From: an uncultured Ignavibacteriales bacterium
GTDB taxonomy: Bacteria > Zixibacteria > MSB-5A5 > GN15 > FEB-12
NCBI GenBank assembly: GCA_964464605.1
Contig: CAYXJN010000004.1
Location: 186,001 to 250,000, forward strand
Direction of reading: 5' to 3'
DNA: 64,000 bases
The position numbers and the translations under genes were made by a program. Positions 5,474 to 23,415 of the stretch are shown in pieces (the stretch's first letter is position 1; each line of letters starts with the position of its first letter). The notes under the pieces are model-generated. The model saw nothing but the letters and a program-made list of their open reading frames with translations. It was not told the origin of the DNA and did not search any database.

Positions 5474-6124
5474 ATGGCCGGTGAAGTAGCTGAACGGGCT
5501 GCGAAAGGACCCAAAAAAGGTTTACGACGACCCAAGCGGCGTGTGTCTATTCGTATCGACATGACCCCCATGGTCGATATCGCTTTTCTTTTGCTAATCT
5601 TCTACATGGTCTCGACCGTGTTTGCCAAACCGCAGGCGATGGAAATCAACCTGCCGCCGAAAGACCAGAAGGAAGATATCGAAGTAGCCGAATCGAATTT
5701 GCTCACGATCCGCGTGGATGGTGAGAGCCGGTTTTGGTGGCATTTAAAGACGGCCACGCCGGAAAATCTGCCGAAGTTGCTTCCGAGCGATCCGAACAAA
5801 CCGGATTCGGTTGCCTACAAGCTCAATCATAAAGAGCTGCAAAAGCTGTTGGTTGAAAAAAATCGGGAAAACAACAAGCTGAACACGCTTATTTTGATTA
5901 GTCCGGAAGGAAACTATGCCGACATGGTCGACATTTTGGATGAAATCGATCTTATCGAACGTTCCTGGAATGCCTACACGGCGAAGGAAAAGAACGTGAA
6001 GGTTGAAGATTTAGGCGCAGATAAGTTTTCCTATCGTTATGCTCTGGGTGAATGGGAAGAACGTGATGCCAAAATCATGGAAGCCGCCATTGATGCGGCT
6101 CGTCTGAAAGGAGAGTTACGATGA
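5474..6124 (+). CDS. exbD: Second ExbD/TolR protein
   Basis: IDMTPMVDIAFLLLIF; YADMVDILDEI; SD AAGGAG. Confidence 0.9.
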   Translation: MAGEVAERAAKGPKKGLRRPKRRVSIRIDMTPMVDIAFLLLIFYMVSTVFAKPQAMEINLPPKDQKEDIEVAESNLLTIRVDGESRFWWHLKTATPENLPKLLPSDPNKPDSVAYKLNHKELQKLLVEKNRENNKLNTLILISPEGNYADMVDILDEIDLIERSWNAYTAKEKNVKVEDLGADKFSYRYALGEWEERDAKIMEAAIDAARLKGELR

Positions 6125-6840
6125 GCACACGCAGCGTGCTGTATTCTCCATACGGCGCTTATGAACTCAAAGCAAGCTATCAGAAGAATTTCTTCCGCTC
6201 GACGATGATCGTAACCGGTGCGATCGTGCTGGGTATTATTATCGCGTATGTCGCGCAGGCAATTTCCGGTTCGGGGGATGAAAATATCCCTGTGCGGACC
6301 ATCAAAACGATCGCCGAACTTGGCCCGCCGCCGTCGGTGGCTAAACGCCCGCCGCAGGTACAGGTGCAGCAGCCGGATGTGAAACTGCCGAAGGTCGGTA
6401 TTCCGAAACCGGTTGCGGATGAAGAAGTAATGGACGAGGATGTCGTTTTGGCAACCCGCGATGAAATGGCGAATATCAGCGCTCCGGACATTATGGCCGG
6501 CGACGGGGATGTCGTTGTCGATATCGAAGAGGATTATATCCCGGCTCCGGACGAATTCGTCGCCGTGGAAGTCGAGCCGGAAATGATTTTCTCTCCGCCG
6601 CTTGAATACCCCAAGATGGCCAAAACTGCCGGTCTTGAAGGTGTCGTGTTTGTGCAGGCCCTGGTGAATGAAAAAGGGGAAGTGCAGGATGTTCGCGTAG
6701 CGAAATCATCGGGCGTGACCTCGCTTGATGAAGCTGCCCTTACCCAGGCGCGCGGCTGCAAATACAAACCGGCAATTCAGAACGGCCGCCCGATCAAGCT
6801 GTGGGTGAGCTATAAGGTTAACTTCTCACTCGACGGTTGA
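6121..6840 (+). CDS. tonB: Energy transducer TonB
   Basis: N-terminal YGAYELK motif plus TM helix, Pro-rich linker, CTD YPKMAKTAGLEGVV..PAIQNGRPI; ATGA overlap with exbD. Confidence 0.9.
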   Translation: MSTRSVLYSPYGAYELKASYQKNFFRSTMIVTGAIVLGIIIAYVAQAISGSGDENIPVRTIKTIAELGPPPSVAKRPPQVQVQQPDVKLPKVGIPKPVADEEVMDEDVVLATRDEMANISAPDIMAGDGDVVVDIEEDYIPAPDEFVAVEVEPEMIFSPPLEYPKMAKTAGLEGVVFVQALVNEKGEVQDVRVAKSSGVTSLDEAALTQARGCKYKPAIQNGRPIKLWVSYKVNFSLDG

Positions 6841-6861
6841 TTTGTTTAGAGGGAGGGGATA

Positions 6862-7341
6862 GTGATAAGACAACGTACAACGCCGCGGCTGGTACTCAGC
6901 GCGGCGTTTTTGTTTTGCCTGCTTTCCCTGCTCGGCTGTCCTCCGCAATCGGATAGCGTGGTAACCTCCGAAAGCGGAATACAGTCATCGGCGGGCAGCA
7001 TATCCGGTGTTTTTCAAGATTGCGGATGGGCAGATGATATTCCTGATTCGACTAAAGTAATTCCGGTCGATGCCATGCCGGAGATGATTTATTCACCGCC
7101 GCTTCAGTATCCCAAAATGGCCAAGACTGCCGGGTTACAGGGAGTGGTGCGAGTTATGGCATTGATTTGCGAAAGCGGTCAAATCGGACGGCTCTGGGTT
7201 TCTGAATCATCAGGTATAGCTTCGCTTGATGCTGCTGCTTTAGCACAAGCGCGTGAGTGCAGATATAAACCGGCAATGAAAGATGGCCGGCCGATAAAGC
7301 TCTGGGTTACGTATCCTATTGAGTTTCGGCTTGATGATTAG
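6862..7341 (+). CDS. Predicted lipoprotein with one TonB C-terminal domain
   Basis: Lipobox LLG-C; CTD YPKMAKTAGLQGVV..PAMKDGRPI; SD GGGAGG. Confidence 0.8.
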   Translation: MIRQRTTPRLVLSAAFLFCLLSLLGCPPQSDSVVTSESGIQSSAGSISGVFQDCGWADDIPDSTKVIPVDAMPEMIYSPPLQYPKMAKTAGLQGVVRVMALICESGQIGRLWVSESSGIASLDAAALAQARECRYKPAMKDGRPIKLWVTYPIEFRLDD

Positions 7342-7382
7342 GTCGTAAATGTAGTGAATCGTTCTTTTGTGCGGGGAGGTTT

Positions 7383-8219
7383 ATGAAAACTATTACAGAG
7401 GGTGTTCAGGTGGTCATTCGATGTGGCTGCATACTGATTTTCATTGTTATGAGCAGTTTAGTCAGCTGCGTTCCTGTATCTGAGTCTGAACTGGGAGAGA
7501 AACGGCAGGTAGTACCAGCGCCGACTCCGAGAGTTGAACGCCCGGTGCCGACACGGGATTATCCTGAGGATTGCTCTTCCGACGCCGATATTCCACCGGT
7601 CGATTCATTTATAGCCGTTCAATGGGAGCCGGAAATGATTTTTACTCCCCGGCTTGAATATCCGGAATCAGCGAAAGCAAAAAAGCAGGAAGGCAAGGTT
7701 ATGATCCGGTCTTTGGTATGCGAAAGCGGGTTTGTGGGTAAAGCCGAAATTCTACGATCATCGGGATTCCCACTCTTAGATAGTGCTGCAATTCAGCAAG
7801 CGCGTGAGTGTGAATATGAACCGGCAATCAAAGATAGGGAACCGGTAAAGGTCTGGGTCAGTTACGCAGTTGATTTCAAGCTCGATCGGGGCGGTTCATC
7901 GAACGGAGAAGAGGATTACATACCGAATACCGACGAGTTTGTCGCTGTTGAAGTGGAACCGGAACGTACTTATGAAGCTCCATTAGAGCTTCCCAAAGAA
8001 GCTGATACCCTGCGTGTGAATGTCACCGCTTATGTACAGGCGCTGGTAACAGAGAATGGCCGTGTTAGTGACGCACGAATAGGAAAGACATCGGGCTATC
8101 CCATTTTAGATAGCGCTGCCGTTAAACAGGCGTATTTGCATAGATATAATCCAGCAATACAACAAGGAAGGCCGATTAAAATCTGGGTAAGTTATAGAGT
8201 AAATTTCGATTTGAAATGA
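7383..8219 (+). CDS. Predicted lipoprotein with two tandem TonB C-terminal domains
   Basis: Lipobox-like LVS-C; two CTDs (YPESAKAKKQEGKV..PAIKDREPV and ..PAIQQGRPI); SD GGAGGT. Confidence 0.8.
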   Translation: MKTITEGVQVVIRCGCILIFIVMSSLVSCVPVSESELGEKRQVVPAPTPRVERPVPTRDYPEDCSSDADIPPVDSFIAVQWEPEMIFTPRLEYPESAKAKKQEGKVMIRSLVCESGFVGKAEILRSSGFPLLDSAAIQQARECEYEPAIKDREPVKVWVSYAVDFKLDRGGSSNGEEDYIPNTDEFVAVEVEPERTYEAPLELPKEADTLRVNVTAYVQALVTENGRVSDARIGKTSGYPILDSAAVKQAYLHRYNPAIQQGRPIKIWVSYRVNFDLK

Positions 8220-8312
8220 GGGTGTATTAATACGCTTGAGTTAAGCTAAACAGATTCCTTTGCCTGTTCGTCATTATTCATAGCCGCCGCAACATTCGCA
8301 CAGGAGGGATCT

Positions 8313-9041
8313 ATGAATCCGTTGTATTCTCCCTATGGAGCCTACGAAATGAAGGCGGCCTATCAACGCAATGGCCTGAAAGCAAGTCTTTGGGTGGCAG
8401 GAATCGGGTGTTTGTTAGGGTTGACGCTTACACTCTATGATCGACTTCCAGAAGAGCAAATAGTTATTATCCCACCCACTCCGCCTATCATCATTAGCAG
8501 TGAACTGTTCTCGAAAGCTCCAAAAATAAAATCTGAACAACCGCGTCCGAAAGCGGCTGTTAGCGCACCGGTGGAGGAAGGGATACCGACACCGGTGCCT
8601 GATGAAACTATGCAGACAGAAGAACTGCAGAGCTTGCCTGAATCCGAATTATCCGGTACTTCCGACTCTTTGTTTGGTGGCGGGACTGGAACCGAAGATG
8701 GCATCGGCGGAGTTGGCGGTGATTTACCGGGAGAATACATCGCACCGCCTCCTGACAGCTTTGTGCCGGTTGAAAAAGAAGCGGTGGCAATATATGAGTG
8801 CAAGCCGGACTACCCACGTTTTGCTCGTCAGGCAGGATTGGAAGGAGTGGTTTACCTGTTTGTTTTGGTAGCGGCAAACGGCGGCGTCAAAGAGGTAAGA
8901 ATTAATAAAGCATCTGGTGTTACGGTGCTCGATGAAGCCGCCAAACAATGCGCGTATAACAACATGTATAGCCCGGCGATACAAAATGGAATCGCAATCG
9001 ACTATTGGATGGGATACAAAGTAATCTTTGAATTGGAATAG
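8313..9041 (+). CDS. tonB: Second membrane-anchored TonB
   Basis: LYSPYGAYEMKAAYQ N-terminus shared with 6121, TM helix, Pro/Gly-rich linker, YPRFARQAGLEGVV CTD; SD AGGAGG. Confidence 0.85.
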   Translation: MNPLYSPYGAYEMKAAYQRNGLKASLWVAGIGCLLGLTLTLYDRLPEEQIVIIPPTPPIIISSELFSKAPKIKSEQPRPKAAVSAPVEEGIPTPVPDETMQTEELQSLPESELSGTSDSLFGGGTGTEDGIGGVGGDLPGEYIAPPPDSFVPVEKEAVAIYECKPDYPRFARQAGLEGVVYLFVLVAANGGVKEVRINKASGVTVLDEAAKQCAYNNMYSPAIQNGIAIDYWMGYKVIFELE

Positions 9042-9067
9042 AAAAAAAGGCCGGTCACCCCGGCCTT
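9042..9067 (-). terminator. Intrinsic terminator between convergent genes
   Basis: AAGGCCGG-tcacc-CCGGCCTT stem preceded by an A tract (U tract on the minus strand). Confidence 0.7.
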
Positions 9068-9090
9068 CATCGTGGATAATCTTTACTACG

Positions 9091-10995
9091 TCACGGACAA
9101 GCCGGTGGCGGGGCGCCGGAGTTGAACAGGAACTGCACGAGGAAAGTCAGGTCGGCAACAGTAATACCGCCGAGACCATTGACATTACCTTCATCCGCGC
9201 ATGGAGACGGGTTGCCGCCGTTGAATAAGTATTGTACCAGATACGTCAGGTCGGCAATCGTGGGACTTTCAGACACGCTGCCGTTGACATTGCCGCGCGA
9301 ACCTATACAGCAACTGCCGGAGTTGAGTTTGACCGCACCCGGAATCGTATCCGGCTCATAAGCAATGCACTCAGTGACAAAGGCCGGATTATGCGATCCG
9401 CCGCCGAATATATACGGCGTAAACGATACCGGGTTAATCTGTCCGCTCGCTGCGCCAGGTACATCGAAGGTGACCGATAATATCTTACCTGTTCCCGGTG
9501 GCAGATCCGGTGCAGTTTCGTTAGTCGAGGTTTTCAGCGCAATAGCGACACGATTGTTGCCTATATCAATACCCAAGAATGATTCCGATTGAAAATACTC
9601 AGTCCGGGTGCCTGTTCTGCTCGTTCCGACCAGCGACATACCGTAGGGACCGGTCCAATTAAGCGGGATAGTAAACTGACGCAACGGGAGTGAGTTCTTG
9701 GCGTAAATATCGACAATCGCCTGAGTACCAGCGGCAACAAACGTGGTTTCGGCCCACATAGTATCCGAGAGCACATCAAGGTGCTCGGAGAACACATACA
9801 TTTTACCGTCCATATTCGATGCATACACGAATCCGTTGCCGGTAAAGGGATAGGCGCCCCAGCAGCCGTTAAAGTCCGGATCTTCCGTCGGCCAGGTATC
9901 ATGCTGGTAAATTTGCTGTGGATTAGTCGGGTCGGAAACATCGACTACGGTGATTCCGGATTCGTAGTGCGATGTATACAGTTTGTCACCTTTCCAGTGG
10001 GTGTTATGCGCAAGACGATTGGGAGCGAGATATTCACCGACCAACTCGATATTCGCCAGGTTATGCAAATCCCAAATTTTTATCGTCTTGTTGGCGGTTT
10101 CTTCGGTGGTTGCCGCATACTTCAGGTCTTCACGCGGCCAGATATTATGGACATATCCACCGGCCGGAATCGGTACGCGGGCGATAAGCTGCGGGCTGGT
10201 TTTATTCGCCATATTCCAAATGGAAAAGGTGCTGTTCCACCCTTCTGCCAAAAACATCGTATCGTTCTGAACGAAGATATCATGGATGCCGTTGTCACCA
10301 TAGTTAATGCCCATACTGGTAACGAAGGTGGGGTTTGCCTGATTGGAGAGGTTGTAAATAGAAAGCGTAACACCGTTAGCTTCGATTCCCTCAAGATACA
10401 TGTACCCTTTCATGGTATCGATAGAAAGGTTGTGGCTTGTATAATTTCCCCATGAAGGAGTAACGATAACCGAGCCGACATACGAAAAGCTGGTCGGAAG
10501 GTTGGTCATGTTGAGAATCATAACCCCTTGATTGGTCCCGGTGCATTCAGAGGTAATATAGACATAGCGGCGGTATGACTTCATATCCCGCCAGCGGGGT
10601 CCAGCCACTGCGCCGCCACAGCCGTTTTCCGGGCCGATTACCGTGCCGACAACAGCCATCGTGCTGGTATTGACTACGGCAACGCCGTTGTAGATGCCGA
10701 AGATTGCATATTCGGTTCCGTTGGGAGCGCGATATCCCCAACAGTCGGTTCCGGCGCCGGTTCCGAACTGGAATGACTTTTCGGCGCAGAGGTAATAGGC
10801 CGTGTCACCCGAATGAAACTGACTTACCTGCGGGCTGAAGGCGGCATCCAGTGCCCCCTGCTGTTTTGTTTCTGTCTGGATCTCATTCCAGGTAAGACGC
10901 TCCGCTACCGGATCAAGTTTGGCGGTTTCGGCTGAAACCGAAAGAGCCAGAATCACGAGCGCGAAGGTGTTCAGCGTTAGCCGAAGGATGTTCAT
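9091..10995 (-). CDS. Secreted choice-of-anchor B-like (LVIVD-repeat propeller) protein with C-terminal cohesin-like and dockerin-like domains, paralog 3
   Basis: DCWGYRAPNGTEYA, WRDMK, SHNL, IHD, HNIW, SHYESG, GCWGAYPF motifs. Ends CCIGSRGNVNG..TIADLTYLVQYLF..C..GNVNG..ITVADLTFLVQFLF..PPPACP. Start placed at 10995 (AAGGA SD, signal peptide). Confidence 0.8.
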   Translation of the reverse strand: MNILRLTLNTFALVILALSVSAETAKLDPVAERLTWNEIQTETKQQGALDAAFSPQVSQFHSGDTAYYLCAEKSFQFGTGAGTDCWGYRAPNGTEYAIFGIYNGVAVVNTSTMAVVGTVIGPENGCGGAVAGPRWRDMKSYRRYVYITSECTGTNQGVMILNMTNLPTSFSYVGSVIVTPSWGNYTSHNLSIDTMKGYMYLEGIEANGVTLSIYNLSNQANPTFVTSMGINYGDNGIHDIFVQNDTMFLAEGWNSTFSIWNMANKTSPQLIARVPIPAGGYVHNIWPREDLKYAATTEETANKTIKIWDLHNLANIELVGEYLAPNRLAHNTHWKGDKLYTSHYESGITVVDVSDPTNPQQIYQHDTWPTEDPDFNGCWGAYPFTGNGFVYASNMDGKMYVFSEHLDVLSDTMWAETTFVAAGTQAIVDIYAKNSLPLRQFTIPLNWTGPYGMSLVGTSRTGTRTEYFQSESFLGIDIGNNRVAIALKTSTNETAPDLPPGTGKILSVTFDVPGAASGQINPVSFTPYIFGGGSHNPAFVTECIAYEPDTIPGAVKLNSGSCCIGSRGNVNGSVSESPTIADLTYLVQYLFNGGNPSPCADEGNVNGLGGITVADLTFLVQFLFNSGAPPPACP

Positions 10996-11159
10996 GTGCA
11001 TGTCCTTATCGATAGAAGATTCGTTCCGGCGGTAGAAGCTGTTCTTCCGGTGCGCCGTTTTCACGGCAGCCGGTATGTCTTATAACAAGATAATACGTAC
11101 TGTCTGTTCAAAAGAATGCTTTTTTGTTAAAAAAACCACGATACACTGAAATATCAGTC

Positions 11160-12950
11160 CTAAAAGGGGCAGGTAGCAGGGGGTGGCCCTCCGGCATACA
11201 AATACTGAACCAGGTAAGTGACATCGGCAATCGTAATTTTACCGATACCGTTCGCGTTTCCTTCCTCGAAACAGGCAGGCATGGGGCCGGAGTTAAACAG
11301 ATAGCTGACTAAAAAGGTCAGATCGGCAATCGTAGCATTGCCGCCGCTGTTGTTAGCGTCGCCGCGTATGCCCGTACAGCAGCTTACCACCTGTACGGCC
11401 CCGGAAGCGGTAACAGGATGTGCCGCGAGGCAATGTGATGCAAAGCTCGGTTCATAGGGAATAGAATCCGGGTAATCGGTAAAGGAAATCATGTTTGTTC
11501 CGGCTGAAGCGTTTCCCGGGATAGCGAAACGTACTTTCACAACCGGACCGCTGCCTGCGGGCAATGGAGGGATGGAATCACTGCCACCGGAAAGCATAAT
11601 CACCATGCGGTTATTGCTTGAATCAAGCAGGGTAGTTTCCGATTGAAAATACTCAGTTCGTGTTTCGGTGCGATCCAAATCGACAAAATGCAGTGTTGAC
11701 GTTCCGGGCCATGACACGGGAATTTGAAATTGTCGAACCGGGTGTGAATTGCTTGCGGAAATCGTAACTTCGGCTTCTGTGCCGTTGGTTGCTATTATCG
11801 CATCTGTCCACATGGTATCATGGATGACATCAGTGCGTTCTTCGATGACAAACAGTTTTCCGTCGGTGTTTGAAATGTACATAGTGCCGTTGTTTGTGTA
11901 TGGGTAGCCGCCCCACGCGCCCCGAAAGTTCGCAAAGTTCGTCGGCCACGTGTCATATTGCAGTTCAACCGTCGGATTAGTCGGATCGGAAACGTCAAAA
12001 ATCACTGCGCCGGCTTCGTAATGCGAGGTGTAAACCCGATCTCCCTTCCAGTAGGCGTTGTGCGTGACATGGCTCGGCCCGAGAATTTCACCGATAAGGG
12101 ATATCGAATGAATATCCTGCATATCCCAAATCTTGAGCGTTTTGTCGGCAGTTTCTTCAGTGGTTACCAAATACCTGCGATCATCACTCGGCCAGAGATT
12201 ATGCATATACCCGCCACCTGGGATCGGAACGCGGGTGATGAGAGCAGGGGACATTTTATCCGCCATGTCGTAAATGGAAAATGAGACATTCCATCCTTCG
12301 GCAATATAGAGAGTGTCATCAAGCGCCGTCATATCGTGAATCCCGCCGGCAATGCCAAAACTGTTCACATAGACCGGTACAGCCGGATTAGCGAGGTCAT
12401 GGATATAAATTGCTTTGCTTGCGGTTGTAATTCCTTCGAGATATGCAAAGCCGTTGGTGGTATCGATGCTTAAACTATGCGATGCAACTTGTATCACCCC
12501 GTTTGTCGGATAGATACCGGCGATACTGACACTGTCAGGTAAATTTTCTAAATCGATTACCATGAGTCCGGCATTGGTGCCTGCACATTCGGAAGTAATA
12601 TAGGCGAAATGATTGTAGACTCGCATTTCCCGCCAGCGAGGGCCATTGATAGCCGAACCGCAGGCAGTCACCGGACCGGGGATAATATCGACCACGGTCA
12701 TGTTTGCCGTATTCACTACCGCGATGCCTTCGTAAACGCCATAAATTGCGTACTCGGTGCCGTCTGGCGCACGATATCCCCAGCATCCGGTTCCGGCGCC
12801 GGTACCGATCTGGATAATCCCTTTATCGCACAGATAATGCGCAGTATCGCCGGAGTTGTATTGGTTGAGTATCGGTTGAGCTGTTATCGAAATAGGCAGT
12901 GTGAGTAAAAAAAGAATAGTTACTAAAAGATATCGAGTGCAAGTACTCAT
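11160..12950 (-). CDS. Secreted choice-of-anchor B-like protein with cohesin-like and dockerin-like domains, paralog 2
   Basis: Same motif set as 9091; signal peptide; C-terminal CCTGIRGDANN..TIADLTFLVSYLF repeat pair. Confidence 0.8.
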   Translation of the reverse strand: MSTCTRYLLVTILFLLTLPISITAQPILNQYNSGDTAHYLCDKGIIQIGTGAGTGCWGYRAPDGTEYAIYGVYEGIAVVNTANMTVVDIIPGPVTACGSAINGPRWREMRVYNHFAYITSECAGTNAGLMVIDLENLPDSVSIAGIYPTNGVIQVASHSLSIDTTNGFAYLEGITTASKAIYIHDLANPAVPVYVNSFGIAGGIHDMTALDDTLYIAEGWNVSFSIYDMADKMSPALITRVPIPGGGYMHNLWPSDDRRYLVTTEETADKTLKIWDMQDIHSISLIGEILGPSHVTHNAYWKGDRVYTSHYEAGAVIFDVSDPTNPTVELQYDTWPTNFANFRGAWGGYPYTNNGTMYISNTDGKLFVIEERTDVIHDTMWTDAIIATNGTEAEVTISASNSHPVRQFQIPVSWPGTSTLHFVDLDRTETRTEYFQSETTLLDSSNNRMVIMLSGGSDSIPPLPAGSGPVVKVRFAIPGNASAGTNMISFTDYPDSIPYEPSFASHCLAAHPVTASGAVQVVSCCTGIRGDANNSGGNATIADLTFLVSYLFNSGPMPACFEEGNANGIGKITIADVTYLVQYLYAGGPPPATCPF

Positions 12951-12981
12951 CTGACTACCGTTCGTTTAAACCCTATCTACG

Positions 12982-13010
12982 AAAAAGACGGGTAATATGC
13001 TTACCCGTCT
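12982..13010 (-). terminator. Intrinsic terminator after paralog 1
   Basis: AGACGGGTAA-tatgc-TTACCCGTCT perfect stem with a U tract on the minus strand. Confidence 0.7.
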
Positions 13011-13052
13011 CTGTTTATCAGAAGGTGGCGATGACCATCAGGACTGACTTCA

Positions 13053-14924
13053 TCACGGACAGGCGGGCGGGGTTGCGCCGCTGTTAAAGAGATACTGTAC
13101 CAAGTAGGTCAAATCCGCAACAGTAATTCCGCTGATCCCGTTCACATTCGCTTCATCGGTACACGAGGGTGAGGTGCCGTCGTTGAACAGATATTGCACC
13201 AGGAATGTAAGATCCGCAACGGTGATCGTTCCGTTGCCGTTTACGTCGCCGCGTGTTCCCACGCAGCAGCCGGCAACTTGCACTTCACCGGAACTGGTGT
13301 CCGGATGAACCGTAATGCACTTGGTGATGAACCCGGGTTCATACGTATTAGGACCGCTCACGAACGGAGCGAAAGTAACCGGATTGGTCGTTCCCAAAAC
13401 GCCGTTCGGCACACTATAGATCACTTTGAGAATTGGTCCGGAACCCGGGGCGAGATCCGGCGCAGTATTGTTGGTTGAAGAGGTTAGGTTCACCACCAAA
13501 CGACGGCCGGGGAGGTCGTTAGCCGGATAGCTTTCCGACTGGAAATAATCCGTTCTGGTGCCGGTGCGATCGGTCGTTACGAAATCCATATTGGACGGGC
13601 CGTTCCAGTCGAGCGGAATCTGGAATTTACGAATCGGATGCGAGTTGCTGGCATAGATCGTTACCGTGACCTGTGTCCCTTCTCCGGTTACCGTCGTGTC
13701 AGCCCACATCGTATCGTTTAAGATTTCATTTTTCTCTTCGAGTACATAGAGCTTACCGTCTAAGTTGGAACCGAAAAACGCGCCACTGTTGGTGTACGGG
13801 AATCCGCCCCACATACCGTTGAAGTTGTGCGTTGCCGTCGGCCAGGTGTCGTAGCCAAGAACTTCAACAATGTTTTCCGGATCGCTGGCATCGAAAATCT
13901 TCATCCCCGCTTCATAGTGGGAGAAGTAGATGCGGTCTCCTTTCCAATACGCATTGTGAGTCAGGCCATCCGGCGGGTTGTACTGATTGACAAACTGCAC
14001 GTCGCCGAGATCGGAGATATTCCACATGGTGATATTCGGGCCGCCGAGTTCGTCGGTAGCAACCAGATAATCACGATCATCGCTCGGCCAGATGTTATGG
14101 ATATACTGAGCACCCGGAACGGCGATGCGCGTAATCAGCGCCGGCGCCATTTTGTTTGCCATATTGTAAATACCGATGGACAGATTAGAACCTTCCGCTA
14201 CATACAGTGTGTCATCAAGCGCGGTGCAATCATGGATACCGCCGCCGATACCGAAGCTGTTGACATAGACCGGGGCTGCCGGATTTGCCAAATTGTGAAT
14301 GCGGATTGAATTGTTCGCAGCCGAGGTTCCCTCAAGGTAGGCGTAGCCGTTGGTGGTATCGATATCAAGACTGTGTGACGTTACCAATCCACCGGGAGGA
14401 TAGGCCTGAAACGCGCCGACTAAATTGACACTAGCCGGCAGATTGCCGAGGTTAATAACCATTAATCCGGCGTTCGTTCCCGTACATTCAGACACGGCGT
14501 ATGCATAATGGTTATAGACACGCATTTCACGCCAGAGTACCGTTCCGCATCCACCGGTCGGACCGGGAATAATACCGACAGTGGTCATGGTGCTGGTATT
14601 GACGACAGCGATACCGGTGGCAACACCCATGATGGCGTAGTCAGTACCATCCGGTGCGCGATACCCCCAGCAACCTGTTCCGCCGAAGGTACCGAACGAC
14701 AAAATTCCTTTGTCGCAGATGTATTGAGCCGTGTCACCGGTTTCATACACAATCTGCTCGGCTTCTTCCGGGCTTGAAGCCAACTGCGTACCGGCTTCTT
14801 TGCTCGGCTTGTTCCGATTATCCCAGTTGGGATCGTTGAGTACCGAAAGCGGCACTGCGTACAGCGATGCGGAAATACAGAGCACCGCTAAGGCTACAGT
14901 TAACATTCCTCTGAATCGCGTCAT
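13053..14924 (-). CDS. Secreted choice-of-anchor B-like protein with cohesin-like and dockerin-like domains, paralog 1
   Basis: SD GAGGAG, signal peptide, same motif set, C-terminal CCVGTRGDVNGNGTITVADLTFLVQYLF repeat pair. Confidence 0.82.
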   Translation of the reverse strand: MTRFRGMLTVALAVLCISASLYAVPLSVLNDPNWDNRNKPSKEAGTQLASSPEEAEQIVYETGDTAQYICDKGILSFGTFGGTGCWGYRAPDGTDYAIMGVATGIAVVNTSTMTTVGIIPGPTGGCGTVLWREMRVYNHYAYAVSECTGTNAGLMVINLGNLPASVNLVGAFQAYPPGGLVTSHSLDIDTTNGYAYLEGTSAANNSIRIHNLANPAAPVYVNSFGIGGGIHDCTALDDTLYVAEGSNLSIGIYNMANKMAPALITRIAVPGAQYIHNIWPSDDRDYLVATDELGGPNITMWNISDLGDVQFVNQYNPPDGLTHNAYWKGDRIYFSHYEAGMKIFDASDPENIVEVLGYDTWPTATHNFNGMWGGFPYTNSGAFFGSNLDGKLYVLEEKNEILNDTMWADTTVTGEGTQVTVTIYASNSHPIRKFQIPLDWNGPSNMDFVTTDRTGTRTDYFQSESYPANDLPGRRLVVNLTSSTNNTAPDLAPGSGPILKVIYSVPNGVLGTTNPVTFAPFVSGPNTYEPGFITKCITVHPDTSSGEVQVAGCCVGTRGDVNGNGTITVADLTFLVQYLFNDGTSPSCTDEANVNGISGITVADLTYLVQYLFNSGATPPACP

Positions 14925-21069: not shown

Positions 21070-23415
21070 ATGGCTAAGAAGTTGTTCGGATTGGTGTTTG
21101 GCATCGTAATGTGGGTTGCAGGCTCTGCGACTGCGCAGTTCACACAAAGTCCGGCTGATTCAGGGGCTGCCGATTCACTCATTATGGTGTATTCGGTGAT
21201 TCCCGACGTTACCACCAGTCAATTCAAGTTCCGGATGGACTTGTACTATTTTAATGACGCGAACAAATACATCGGGGCCGGTGTTGGATTCAAGTGGGAC
21301 AATATCAACATGCAGATGGACAGCGCGAAAGCAACGCCGATGATGGTGACCGCATTCGATGGCGGCCGGTTCTTTTATGAGGGGAACAACATAAACACTA
21401 CCAATCTGAACCGTCGTTTTCAGTTTGCCGGTTTCCAGCAGACCGGCCCCGGATTTTTGCCGGGTGCGAATAGACAGCTTTGGGCGAGTTATTACTTCAC
21501 GCTATCGAATTGGTCATTGACCGATTCAATCTGTCTGGACACGATGGTTTTCAGTGGCGGTACCGCGTACGAATTTCTTATTGAAACGAACAACGATGTT
21601 GTTGCACCGTATTTTGACGGACATTCCTGTGCCTTCGATACTGCTTATACACCACCCTCAGCGATTGTTTTAACTCAGGACTCACTGCATTTTTCCGGCA
21701 TAGCCGGCGGATCAAACCCGCCGGGACAAACTTTCCAGGTGCAGTCTGATAATGCGAATTTTCCTTTTACCCTGACAGAAACCAGCAGTTGGATGGTGGT
21801 GAATCCGCTGGTGGGAACGACTCCGAAAACGATTAACGTGTCGGCGAATATCACCGCACTTCCGGCCGGGAATTACAAGGATTCAATTTTAGTCTCTGCG
21901 CCAACCTCGACAAATTCTCCACAATACGTAGTTGTTACGCTCAGTCTGGTACCACCGCCACCGACAATCTCGGCGACACCGAGCACATTCATTTTTAACG
22001 GCATAGCCAACGGCTCAAATCCCGCATCGCAGACGCTGACGATCAAAAATACCGGCGGATCAACATTGAATTGGACGGTGGCAAACAGCCAGCCCTGGCT
22101 GGATTTGGCGCCGACAAGCGGCACTGACAGCGGTGGGGTTGTTGTGTCAATTGACAATACCGGTCTTGTTACCGGAACCTACACGGACACGATTGTCATT
22201 ACCGATCCGGCGGCGTCGAACAATCCGGTGAAACGCCCGGTGACGCTTAATCTGGGCAGTGATTTGCCTTCTATTGTTGCTCCCAGCAACATTACCATTG
22301 TCGTCGACAATGATTCCTCAACCATCGGTCCGCGTACGTTTGAAATTACCAACGGCGGTATCGGTACGCTGACCTTTACACTTTCAGAAACATCGCCCCG
22401 TATTCTGTCAGTAACTCCAAGCAGTGGTACGGCACCGCAGTCGATAACGGTGGATTTTAAGCTCATTGGCGGCAGCTTCCAAAATGATTATTTCGATACC
22501 CTCTGGATAACCTCGCCAGAAGCGACCAATTCGCCCTACCCGGTTGAGTTTTTTCTGCACTATATCAATAATCCGGCGATTCTGGCCGTGAGTGAAGACA
22601 CGATTGATTTACGGGTCTACGAATGTTCGCAGGGACAGGGGAATAGTCTGCCGACTGTTCTGTTCTCAGTAACAAATATCGGATTGGACAATCCGCAGGC
22701 ATTTAGTCTCACGTATGAATCTGACTTGTTCCAAACTGATATTACCAATGGAGAATTACCATCGCTTGTTGAAGTCGCAGCAAAAAATCCCGGGCTGCCG
22801 GTCGGCGTATACTACGATACTATTATCGTAACGGCGCCGGTTGCGTTAGGCAGTCCGAAACTGGTTATCGTACGGTACACCATGAGCGCTGGTACTATTC
22901 AACCGCAAGCGCTACTCAGCGGCCTTGATTTTACTGTTCCGACTCAGGAAAATGAAGGGCCGCTTTTGGGTTCTGCGCTTGTTATTGAAAATAAGTATGG
23001 CGGCTGTATGCCCTGGCACATTGTGGAAACGATACCATGGTTGTCTTTCGGTTCAACCAGTGGTGATGTAGCCGGCGCAACCAGTATGATTATTGATGCA
23101 ACAGGATTCGTTTTTGGGCAATACCCGGATTCGTTTAAGGTTGTTACGCCTGGGGCAGTACATGACACCACCGTGGTGAAGATTAAGATGGTGGTCTGGA
23201 AATTCTTCGGTGATGTCAATTACGATAAGAAAATTACGGTGGCAGACTTAGTCTATCTGGTGCAGTATCTGTTTAACGGCGGACCGGTACCAAAACCTGA
23301 GCGGCGTGTCGGCGACGTAAACTGCGACCGTTTCCCGACTGTTCAGGACTTGGTCTACATGGTACAGTACATGTATAATAACGGGCCGATACCTTGCGGG
23401 AATCCGTTTAAGTAG
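21070..23415 (+). CDS. Secreted surface protein: N-terminal beta-sandwich (possibly cohesin-like), several BACON/Ig-like repeats, C-terminal dockerin-like domain
   Basis: SD GGAGG and a signal peptide; repeats such as NPASQTLTIKNTGGSTLNWTVANSQPWLDLAPTSG; ends GDVNYDKKITVADLVYLVQYLFNGGP..GDVNCDRFPTVQDLVYMVQYMYNNGPIPC. Confidence 0.8.
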   Translation: MAKKLFGLVFGIVMWVAGSATAQFTQSPADSGAADSLIMVYSVIPDVTTSQFKFRMDLYYFNDANKYIGAGVGFKWDNINMQMDSAKATPMMVTAFDGGRFFYEGNNINTTNLNRRFQFAGFQQTGPGFLPGANRQLWASYYFTLSNWSLTDSICLDTMVFSGGTAYEFLIETNNDVVAPYFDGHSCAFDTAYTPPSAIVLTQDSLHFSGIAGGSNPPGQTFQVQSDNANFPFTLTETSSWMVVNPLVGTTPKTINVSANITALPAGNYKDSILVSAPTSTNSPQYVVVTLSLVPPPPTISATPSTFIFNGIANGSNPASQTLTIKNTGGSTLNWTVANSQPWLDLAPTSGTDSGGVVVSIDNTGLVTGTYTDTIVITDPAASNNPVKRPVTLNLGSDLPSIVAPSNITIVVDNDSSTIGPRTFEITNGGIGTLTFTLSETSPRILSVTPSSGTAPQSITVDFKLIGGSFQNDYFDTLWITSPEATNSPYPVEFFLHYINNPAILAVSEDTIDLRVYECSQGQGNSLPTVLFSVTNIGLDNPQAFSLTYESDLFQTDITNGELPSLVEVAAKNPGLPVGVYYDTIIVTAPVALGSPKLVIVRYTMSAGTIQPQALLSGLDFTVPTQENEGPLLGSALVIENKYGGCMPWHIVETIPWLSFGSTSGDVAGATSMIIDATGFVFGQYPDSFKVVTPGAVHDTTVVKIKMVVWKFFGDVNYDKKITVADLVYLVQYLFNGGPVPKPERRVGDVNCDRFPTVQDLVYMVQYMYNNGPIPCGNPFK

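Follow-up and report, generated by a model that had tools for sequence, protein, structure and literature searches.

What might a secreted protein do with both halves of a plug-and-socket pair in a single chain? Three tandem genes, called A, B and C here, raise this question. They lie in a 64,000-nucleotide stretch of DNA (the window: positions 186,001 to 250,000, forward strand, of contig CAYXJN010000004.1, assembly GCA_964464605.1) from a bacterium of the Zixibacteria lineage, whose genome (labelled G000) amounts to 2.8 Mb on 18 contigs and is 100% complete by tool estimate. The Zixibacteria, which are uncultured, have a wide distribution in sediments and soils; to our knowledge their handling of extracellular polymers has been deduced solely from gene lists. 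Each of the three proteins starts with a signal-peptide-like segment, continues with a choice-of-anchor B propeller and a beta-rich domain, and ends in a duplicated EF-hand-like tail. These parts had been described in an initial annotation of the locus, and its coordinates proved exact. The motifs DTMW, R.F.IP..W, RT.TRT.YFQSE and CC..C..CP are invariant alignment columns in A, B and C, and all three propellers match TIGR04312 at 159-166 bits. The last two modules are identified below as a cohesin and a dockerin that together make up a C-terminal cassette found across the phylum. We think it probable that they belong to a non-cellulosomal surface docking system that is rooted on cohesins anchored through a type IX secretion system (T9SS), and to which the cargo brings an extra socket.

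Identity of the cohesin and dockerin modules

The middle domain is all-beta and about 155 aa long, and by modelled fold and sequence profile it is a true cohesin. Three further lines of evidence (fold, profile and a transitive link through a metagenome protein) were needed because the single domains of the three proteins match nothing in Pfam. The last 226 residues of gene C, comprising cohesin and tail, were modelled with AlphaFold2 from 104 aligned sequences, with a predicted local distance difference test (pLDDT) of 95.6 and a predicted template modelling score (pTM) of 0.82. In a Foldseek search of the PDB every match listed is a cohesin, in agreement with the nine-stranded jelly-roll beta-sandwich of that family, with template modelling (TM) scores on the target of 0.7-0.8 and a probability of 1.00. 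Examples are 6kgf_A and 1aoh_A (TM 0.80 each) and the non-cellulosomal cohesin 2xdh of Archaeoglobus fulgidus (TM 0.74). Profile A5, built from 14 domains of the genome itself, retrieves 18 solved cohesins from the PDB sequences at E<=0.0035, among them 1aoh_A (6.3e-8), 4ums_A (3.3e-7) and 2xdh_A (9.3e-5). A middle domain of some other fold had been named as the outcome that would undo the initial annotation; model, Foldseek search and profile A5 all return a cohesin.

At E<=0.1, six of these 14 domains match Pfam Cohesin when searched one by one. Within the genome, paralogous domains of this type pass the Pfam family (PF00963) with 31.2, 30.9 and 25.3 bits, and whole proteins reach 51.3 and 44.7. 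The transitive link is supplied by P0047, which has four tandem copies of the domain and matches Pfam Cohesin with 77 bits (2.1e-21).

The tail, which had been called dockerin-like, is by sequence a dockerin. Gene C matches Pfam Dockerin_1 (PF00404) with 25.9 bits as a whole protein and 31.3 bits as the tail alone, against a cut-off of 22.9. The tails of A, B and C match a genome-derived tail hidden Markov model (HMM) at 1e-32 to 1e-36, alongside open reading frames (ORFs) that pass Pfam. When the tail is searched against the PDB sequences with phmmer, solved dockerins are the sole matches. In the alignment the tail consists of two EF-hand-like loop-plus-helix repeats bracketed by cysteines, and the model places helices at 172-183, 192-195 and 205-216, giving the order loop-helix, short helix, loop-helix. 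Two 12-residue EF-hand-like loops were found in 57 of 59 C-terminal tails of the genome. Position 12 of the first and second loop is D in 51/57 and 57/57, position 1 is N in 26/57 and 32/57, and position 9 is T in 44/57 and 47/57; position 3 is mostly N, and position 5 is often hydrophobic in the second loop.

Four cysteines, situated at the start of the dockerin, in the inter-repeat linker and at the very end, are present in 83, 98, 77 and 101 of the 104 aligned cassettes. From this pattern it is probable that they form one or two disulfides that clasp the dockerin ends, one nearly universal and the other common. The tails of the genome fall into two cysteine classes: 30 have the CC...C...C arrangement of A, B and C, and 29 have other patterns, often with a C ahead of the first loop and NC in the second. 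Judged from sequence, the two classes could mark two binding specificities.

The cassette, its candidate partners and the proposed docking system

The initial annotation had treated the presence of both modules in one chain as a special feature of these three genes. This did not hold: across the phylum the cohesin-dockerin pair is found as a C-terminal cassette on cargo of many types. With the middle-domain profile, 1.84 billion representatives yield 390 proteins at E<=1e-3, and architecture was counted on the best 150 of the 390. In 139 of these 150 the tail lies <=6 residues from the C-terminus, while two have an internal tail and nine have none. Most of the nine look truncated; two end in a T9SS sorting domain, one of them P0047. 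Where sources are named, they are Zixibacteria. Of 201 genomes sampled across the phylum, 164 have the cohesin type, among them 72/72 of the bacterium's own family, with up to 14 copies per genome. A Pfam scan covered 87 of the 150 representatives, and its domain tallies were counted from the output. Peptidase domains occur in 33 of the 87 (C1, C10, C25, M43, S8, M28, trypsin-like, C39-like, S41 and M66) and a PKD domain in 63, and others carry lysyl oxidase, beta-helix, lectin-like or LVIVD domains. A, B and C differ from the PKD-bearing cassette proteins in having no PKD spacer.

Within the genome itself, ORFs were taken from our own six-frame calls, and the tail and middle-domain HMMs were iterated within this one genome. 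The tail HMM, seeded with the tails of A, B and C, marks 64 ORFs; in 59 of them it reaches to within 0-6 residues of the stop and has a conserved ...PP.CP end. Pfam alone gives 20 dockerin matches in the genome. A signal-like N-terminus is found in 55 of the 59, compared with 723 of 1486 background ORFs. This is the genome-wide tail count, with its co-occurrence of signal peptides, that had been suggested as a check on the locus. It largely bears out the suggestion that the tail acts as an anchoring signal of this lineage, given that the tail ends 59 ORFs and that the same slot in homologs holds T9SS domains or other ends.

Among 56 tail ORFs scanned for domains, 14 are peptidases (eight S8, two M14, two trypsin-like, one M43 and one M12) and none matches a glycoside hydrolase (GH) family at E<=1e-5. 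The remaining cargo comprises FG-GAP/ASPIC proteins, DUF7948+SBBP propellers, GSDH, beta-helix, PhoD, lectin and kelch proteins, and unknowns. A cellulosome proper is ruled out by this lack of GH cargo.

Candidate sockets are present in the same genome. Its secretion genes include one SprA match, two secretins and 28 T9SS type A sorting domains, and a cohesin and a T9SS C-terminal domain (CTD) occur together in at least six proteins (Table 1). The two minimal ones, in which a signal-like start, a cohesin and a sorting domain are all that is seen, would be the simplest conceivable surface sockets; one of them lies 5.5 kb past the window end (C4:255546-256382). Three proteins carry an internal dockerin upstream of a T9SS domain, and the module therefore also works away from the C-terminus. 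A, B and C have no match to the T9SS CTD (TIGR04183 / PF18962) at E<=1 and are thereby ruled out as T9SS substrates.

Two further loci bear on these parts. Cohesin, dockerin, T9SS sorting and immunoglobulin (Ig)-like (Big_9, cadherin-like) domains are all that is encoded by a 21-kb cluster of seven same-strand genes (C1:425900-446966). One of its products, of 2185 aa, has 12 Big_9 stretches and a terminal dockerin tail, and two others carry an internal dockerin before a T9SS domain. By its gene content the cluster is likely to be the core of the docking system. The gene at C3:135738-137708 encodes a protein with a lysyl oxidase domain, an internal partial Por_Secre_tail-like stretch (residues 322-374) and a terminal dockerin tail; on this sequence, one anchor may have been replaced in it by the other.

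The proposal starts from observations: the identities of the modules, how widely they are spread in the genome and the phylum, the presence of T9SS-anchored cohesins alongside them and the types of cargo. A, B and C would be Sec-exported propellers ending in a compact cohesin-dockerin dyad, the standard cassette of secreted Zixibacteria proteins. The T9SS would export the cohesin proteins and fix them to the outer membrane. The dockerin, as the plug, would then most likely bind these T9SS-anchored cohesins, as sockets, and so keep the cargo at the cell surface. The cis cohesin of the cargo would most likely offer a further socket to the next dockerin-tailed protein. Peptidases, propellers and adhesin-like proteins could in this way be built up, in chains or branches, into a non-cellulolytic, cellulosome-like display. 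The scheme is in line with what is established about cohesin-dockerin systems and with two published cases, the predicted T9SS scaffoldin of the Cloacimonadota (PMC8542988) and Amy4 of Ruminococcus bromii (PMC4611034).

Several points weigh against this picture. We infer every binding step and every partner assignment in it. Taken singly, the cohesins of A, B and C do not match Pfam Cohesin even at E<=10, nor do the tails of A and B match Pfam Dockerin_1 at E<=10. Acidic ligands are scarce in the loops compared with classical dockerins, and calcium dependence is uncertain on this sequence. The ORF counts may be off by a few, and the signal count is a crude hydrophobicity heuristic. The outer-membrane route of the T9SS-less dockerin proteins is puzzling from the gene content, which includes two secretins. 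Finally, the confidently modelled, linker-free junction between the two modules means that the cis cohesin could be a structural support rather than a free socket.

This last point leads to the main rival explanation, in which the cis cohesin only stiffens and stabilises the dockerin, in the manner of the X module of type II dyads, and binds nothing, so that the proteins are end cargo. The linker from cohesin to dockerin is essentially absent, with none before the CC, and pLDDT stays at 88 or more through the junction; together with the two-domain pTM this would suit a rigid unit. So would the inheritance of the dyad as a unit in the 139 representatives, and the greater distance of the A, B and C cohesins, which have no single match, from Pfam Cohesin than that of the T9SS-anchored ones. 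The same cohesin type, however, occurs without a dockerin in one, two or four tandem copies on T9SS-CTD proteins, which is the layout of a binding scaffold. Moreover, 51 of the 59 tail ORFs are without a cis cohesin, and the dockerin thus needs none for its stability. We regard a purely structural role as unlikely. When the cohesin-dockerin part of gene C was paired with a second copy of itself in a complex prediction (score 0.28, mark 0.42, run without controls), the outcome pointed neither way.

The tail might instead be primarily a sorting or export signal for a dedicated machinery, with its dockerin likeness reflecting ancestry only. Such a signal would account for the terminal position of 59 of 64 tails and their conserved end, for about 60 substrates in 2.8 Mb, for the tail filling the T9SS-domain slot of homologs, and for proteins that are T9SS-less, yet in many cases evidently extracellular enzymes. 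It would not account for the matching cohesins on surface-anchored proteins of the same genome, nor for the three proteins in which an internal dockerin lies upstream of a genuine T9SS domain. Sortase- or exosortase-type signals have a transmembrane helix or a basic tail, and the sequences of A, B and C show neither. On balance a primarily sorting role seems quite improbable. A more elaborate scheme, which we consider very improbable, would make the Cys-clasped dyad both a self-propagating block and an export ticket: dockerin-tailed proteins, themselves T9SS-less, would pair in the periplasm with T9SS cohesin proteins, pass as folded complexes through the wide SprA channel and, with every cargo protein contributing another socket at the surface, give rise to branched, T9SS-rooted trees of peptidases and propellers. 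For the docking system itself we infer the surface location, the disulfides and the outer-membrane crossing route.

The three-gene locus and its propellers

Genes C, B and A follow each other head to tail on the minus strand, with spacers of 95 and 102 bases (Table 1). In alignment the paralogs are 51% and 49% identical to gene A. Their N-termini, judged by eye, resemble Sec signals, with a basic residue, a hydrophobic run and a small-x-small site. The real start of gene A is probably Met24 (coordinate 10995), giving a protein of 634 aa and a gene at 9091-10995, because the database protein of the same genome (P0157) is 634 aa long. No terminator-like site is listed between A, B and C on the minus strand in the promoter/terminator scan, and this is only suggestive of a single transcription unit; terminator-like sites are no more numerous in the region than in shuffled sequence, and the same applies to the scan overall.

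Table 1. Coordinates of the features discussed; those without a contig prefix are positions in the window, and C1, C3, C4, C5 and C6 denote contigs of the same genome.
Feature	Coordinates	Strand	Description
Gene C	13053..14924	minus	623 aa; signal-peptide-like N-terminus, choice-of-anchor B propeller, cohesin, dockerin; TIGR04312 166.0 bits
Gene C propeller, aa 58-400	13725..14753	minus	Seven-bladed beta-propeller in the AlphaFold2 model
Gene C cohesin, aa 398-552	13269..13733	minus	AlphaFold2 model, Foldseek and profile match
Gene C dockerin tail, aa 553-623	13056..13268	minus	CC, loop-helix, C, loop-helix, C-P end; Pfam Dockerin_1 2.4e-7
Gene B	11160..12950	minus	596 aa; architecture as gene C; TIGR04312 164.7 bits
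Gene B cohesin, aa 372-523	11382..11837	minus	Own-genome middle-domain HMM 2.8e-49
Gene B dockerin tail	11163..11381	minus	Own-genome tail HMM 4.0e-34
Gene A	9091..11064	minus	Longest ORF, 657 aa; TIGR04312 158.7 bits
Gene A cohesin, aa 428-584	9313..9783	minus	Own-genome middle-domain HMM 7.1e-53
Gene A dockerin tail	9094..9312	minus	First loop longer; own-genome tail HMM 1.5e-32
Terminator-like hairpin	9046..9068	minus	9 pairs, 6 GC, T-run; 23 bases past the gene A stop
Fourth tail-bearing gene	21070..23415	plus	781 aa; BACON_2 (3.2e-11) and non-CC dockerin tail; tail HMM 1.1e-28
T9SS-CTD cohesin protein	C1:435183-437648		Two cohesins; Pfam Cohesin 51.3 bits
T9SS-CTD cohesin protein	C1:437685-440387		Pfam Cohesin 44.7 bits
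T9SS-CTD cohesin protein	C3:94003-98658		
T9SS-CTD cohesin protein	C6:306133-309126		
Minimal T9SS-CTD cohesin protein	C4:255546-256382		278 aa; signal-like start, cohesin, sorting domain
Minimal T9SS-CTD cohesin protein	C5:3998-4864		288 aa; signal-like start, cohesin, sorting domain

The fourth tail-bearing gene of the window encodes a protein that scores 20.4 bits against Pfam Dockerin_1, under the cut-off. The neighbours of the locus are unrelated to it: beyond gene C lie a DEAD-box helicase and Lon. On the other side an ExbD gene and four consecutive TonB_C genes (5474-9041, plus strand) converge on gene A. The TonB_C genes lie at 6121-6840, 6862-7341, 7383-8219 and 8313-9041, and one of them has two TonB_C domains. 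Such a pile-up of TonB-like energy transducers beside a propeller trio is unusual.

The trio is not a conserved tandem unit. The corresponding locus of a relative (L001) has a single gene, and the number of choice_anch_B copies above the cut-off ranges from 0 to 5 per genome among 31 genomes (30 relatives and the present one). The homologs P0155, P0156 and P0158 hint at a trio in one close relative and do not show one. These copy numbers bear on a further explanation, head-to-tail self-assembly, in which the dockerin of one copy or paralog binds the cohesin of the next and A, B and C form a homo- or heteropolymeric lattice of propellers, whether attached to the cell or free of it. All three proteins have both modules intact, the tandem paralogs share the CC tail type, and Amy4 of Ruminococcus bromii offers the experimental precedent of a cohesin that binds its own dockerin (PMC4611034). 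A lattice made by this trio is harder to reconcile with the single-copy locus of the relative and with the variable copy number, and the occurrence of the cassette on dozens of unrelated cargo types is a better fit to a general docking network. We consider self-assembly rather unlikely, and T9SS-rooted docking of the propellers is the reading kept here.

As for the propellers, A, B and C score above the curated TIGR04312 (choice_anch_B) cut-off of 100 bits, with E-values of 1e-46 to 1e-48 that lie far outside chance, and they are the sole matches to this family in the whole genome. Pfam detects only sub-threshold LVIVD repeats in them. We know of no function assigned to the TIGR04312 family. 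A literature search on LVIVD gave only a description of the repeat from 2004 and a preprint that guesses at attachment. Residues 58-400 of gene C, modelled from a 103-row alignment, form a seven-bladed propeller (pLDDT 95.6, pTM 0.92). Its structural matches by Foldseek and VIA-align are generic WD40-like seven-bladed propellers (VIA Z about 30-32), and the fold therefore gives no function.

Across 103 homologs the residues His127, Asp132, His174-Asp175, His219, Glu235 and His266-Asn267 (numbering of the 343-residue part) are invariant. The structural neighbour with the highest listed identity is 5ioj_A, a binuclear-manganese phosphotriesterase of Sphingobium (18% identity, Z 30.2, 313 aligned residues, root-mean-square deviation 3.0). 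Its Z is tied with many unrelated propeller rows, and the propeller profile matches this protein weakly (E 0.014-0.028), with no stretch passing. The invariant His/Asp/Glu columns make a possible metal site, as a lead only; from sequence the propeller may be either a binding module or a metal-dependent enzyme.

The C-terminal anchors of this propeller family vary. Among 120 homologs listed, the propeller is followed by a T9SS domain (PF18962/PF13860), TSP_3 repeats, PKD+Dockerin_1 or the cohesin-dockerin cassette. Since these anchors are interchangeable at the same position, the cassette sits where an anchor belongs.

Relation to known docking systems

Both superfamilies are already known, and cohesin-dockerin systems that are non-cellulosomal, and even T9SS-anchored, are in print. 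A literature search, with subscription papers and supplements outside its scope, found no link of Zixibacteria to dockerin or cohesin; in one publication the words Zixibacteria and cellulosome co-occur, once each. Within the same scope neither the fixed cohesin-CC-dockerin cassette on cargo nor the cysteine clasp was found. The proposal implies a surface proteome organised by cohesin-dockerin docking, in which about 60 secreted proteins would share one plug, the sockets would be on T9SS proteins, and many cargo proteins would have a socket of their own. If true, it would carry the principle of the cellulosome over to the degradation of proteins in a Gram-negative phylum. The proposal also provides a concrete, testable set of cohesin-dockerin pairs, and the compact dyads, with their predicted disulfide staples, are possible parts for protein display.

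A close structural likeness is to the clostridial type I system (Clostridium thermocellum CipA 1aoh/1anu, complex 1ohz). It shares both folds, with TM 0.75-0.80 for the cohesin, and a duplicated loop-helix dockerin recognised by Pfam and phmmer. The present system differs in its Gram-negative host, its lack of GH cargo, anchoring by T9SS CTDs rather than by SLH domains or sortase, the linker-free fusion of cohesin and dockerin on cargo, and Cys-clasped, acid-poor loops. A cellulosome has a cell-anchored scaffoldin and GHs as its main cargo. The counterpart of the former would be the six cohesin proteins with a T9SS CTD, of which one has two cohesins (the related P0047 has four) and whose anchoring is predicted from the domain; in place of the latter, 0 of the 56 tail ORFs are GHs and 14 are peptidases.

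The X module-dockerin dyads of type II/III systems (3kcp, 4iu2) likewise have a beta-sandwich directly before the dockerin, probably packed against it. The preceding domain here is, by fold and profile, a cohesin and not an Ig-like X module.

The initial annotation had also held that cohesin and dockerin normally occur on different proteins. Adaptor scaffoldins, Amy4 and proteins of anaerobic methanotrophic (ANME) archaea are known exceptions to this. ANME proteins have a dockerin and up to five cohesins (PMC9012536). Together with A. fulgidus 2xdh, they resemble the present proteins in holding both modules in one chain outside cellulose degradation. They differ in their anchoring and are not known to have a fixed cohesin-CC-dockerin junction or a PKD-cohesin-dockerin layout of cargo. 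Amy4 of the R. bromii amylosome has a cohesin and a C-terminal dockerin; it was shown to bind its own dockerin as well as the dockerins of other enzymes, and a cell-anchored scaffoldin is a further docking partner (PMC4611034). It is one enzyme of a sortase-anchored Firmicute system, whereas the cassette is family-wide (139/150 representatives; 8 ORFs in the genome) and predicted to bind.

A near parallel in organisation is Ca. Stygibacter of the Cloacimonadota, for which dockerin-tailed S8 and C25 peptidases and a T9SS-CTD cohesin scaffoldin have been predicted (PMC8542988). Both systems are genome-inferred, come from uncultured Gram-negative bacteria, and pair a T9SS-CTD scaffoldin with dockerin-tailed peptidases. 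Ca. Stygibacter has one scaffoldin of 3,755 aa with tandem cohesins and carbohydrate-binding modules, and its cargo includes GH18 and GH57. In the Zixibacteria genome, by comparison, there are several small T9SS cohesin proteins, each with at most two such cohesins, and cargo that bears a cohesin of its own.

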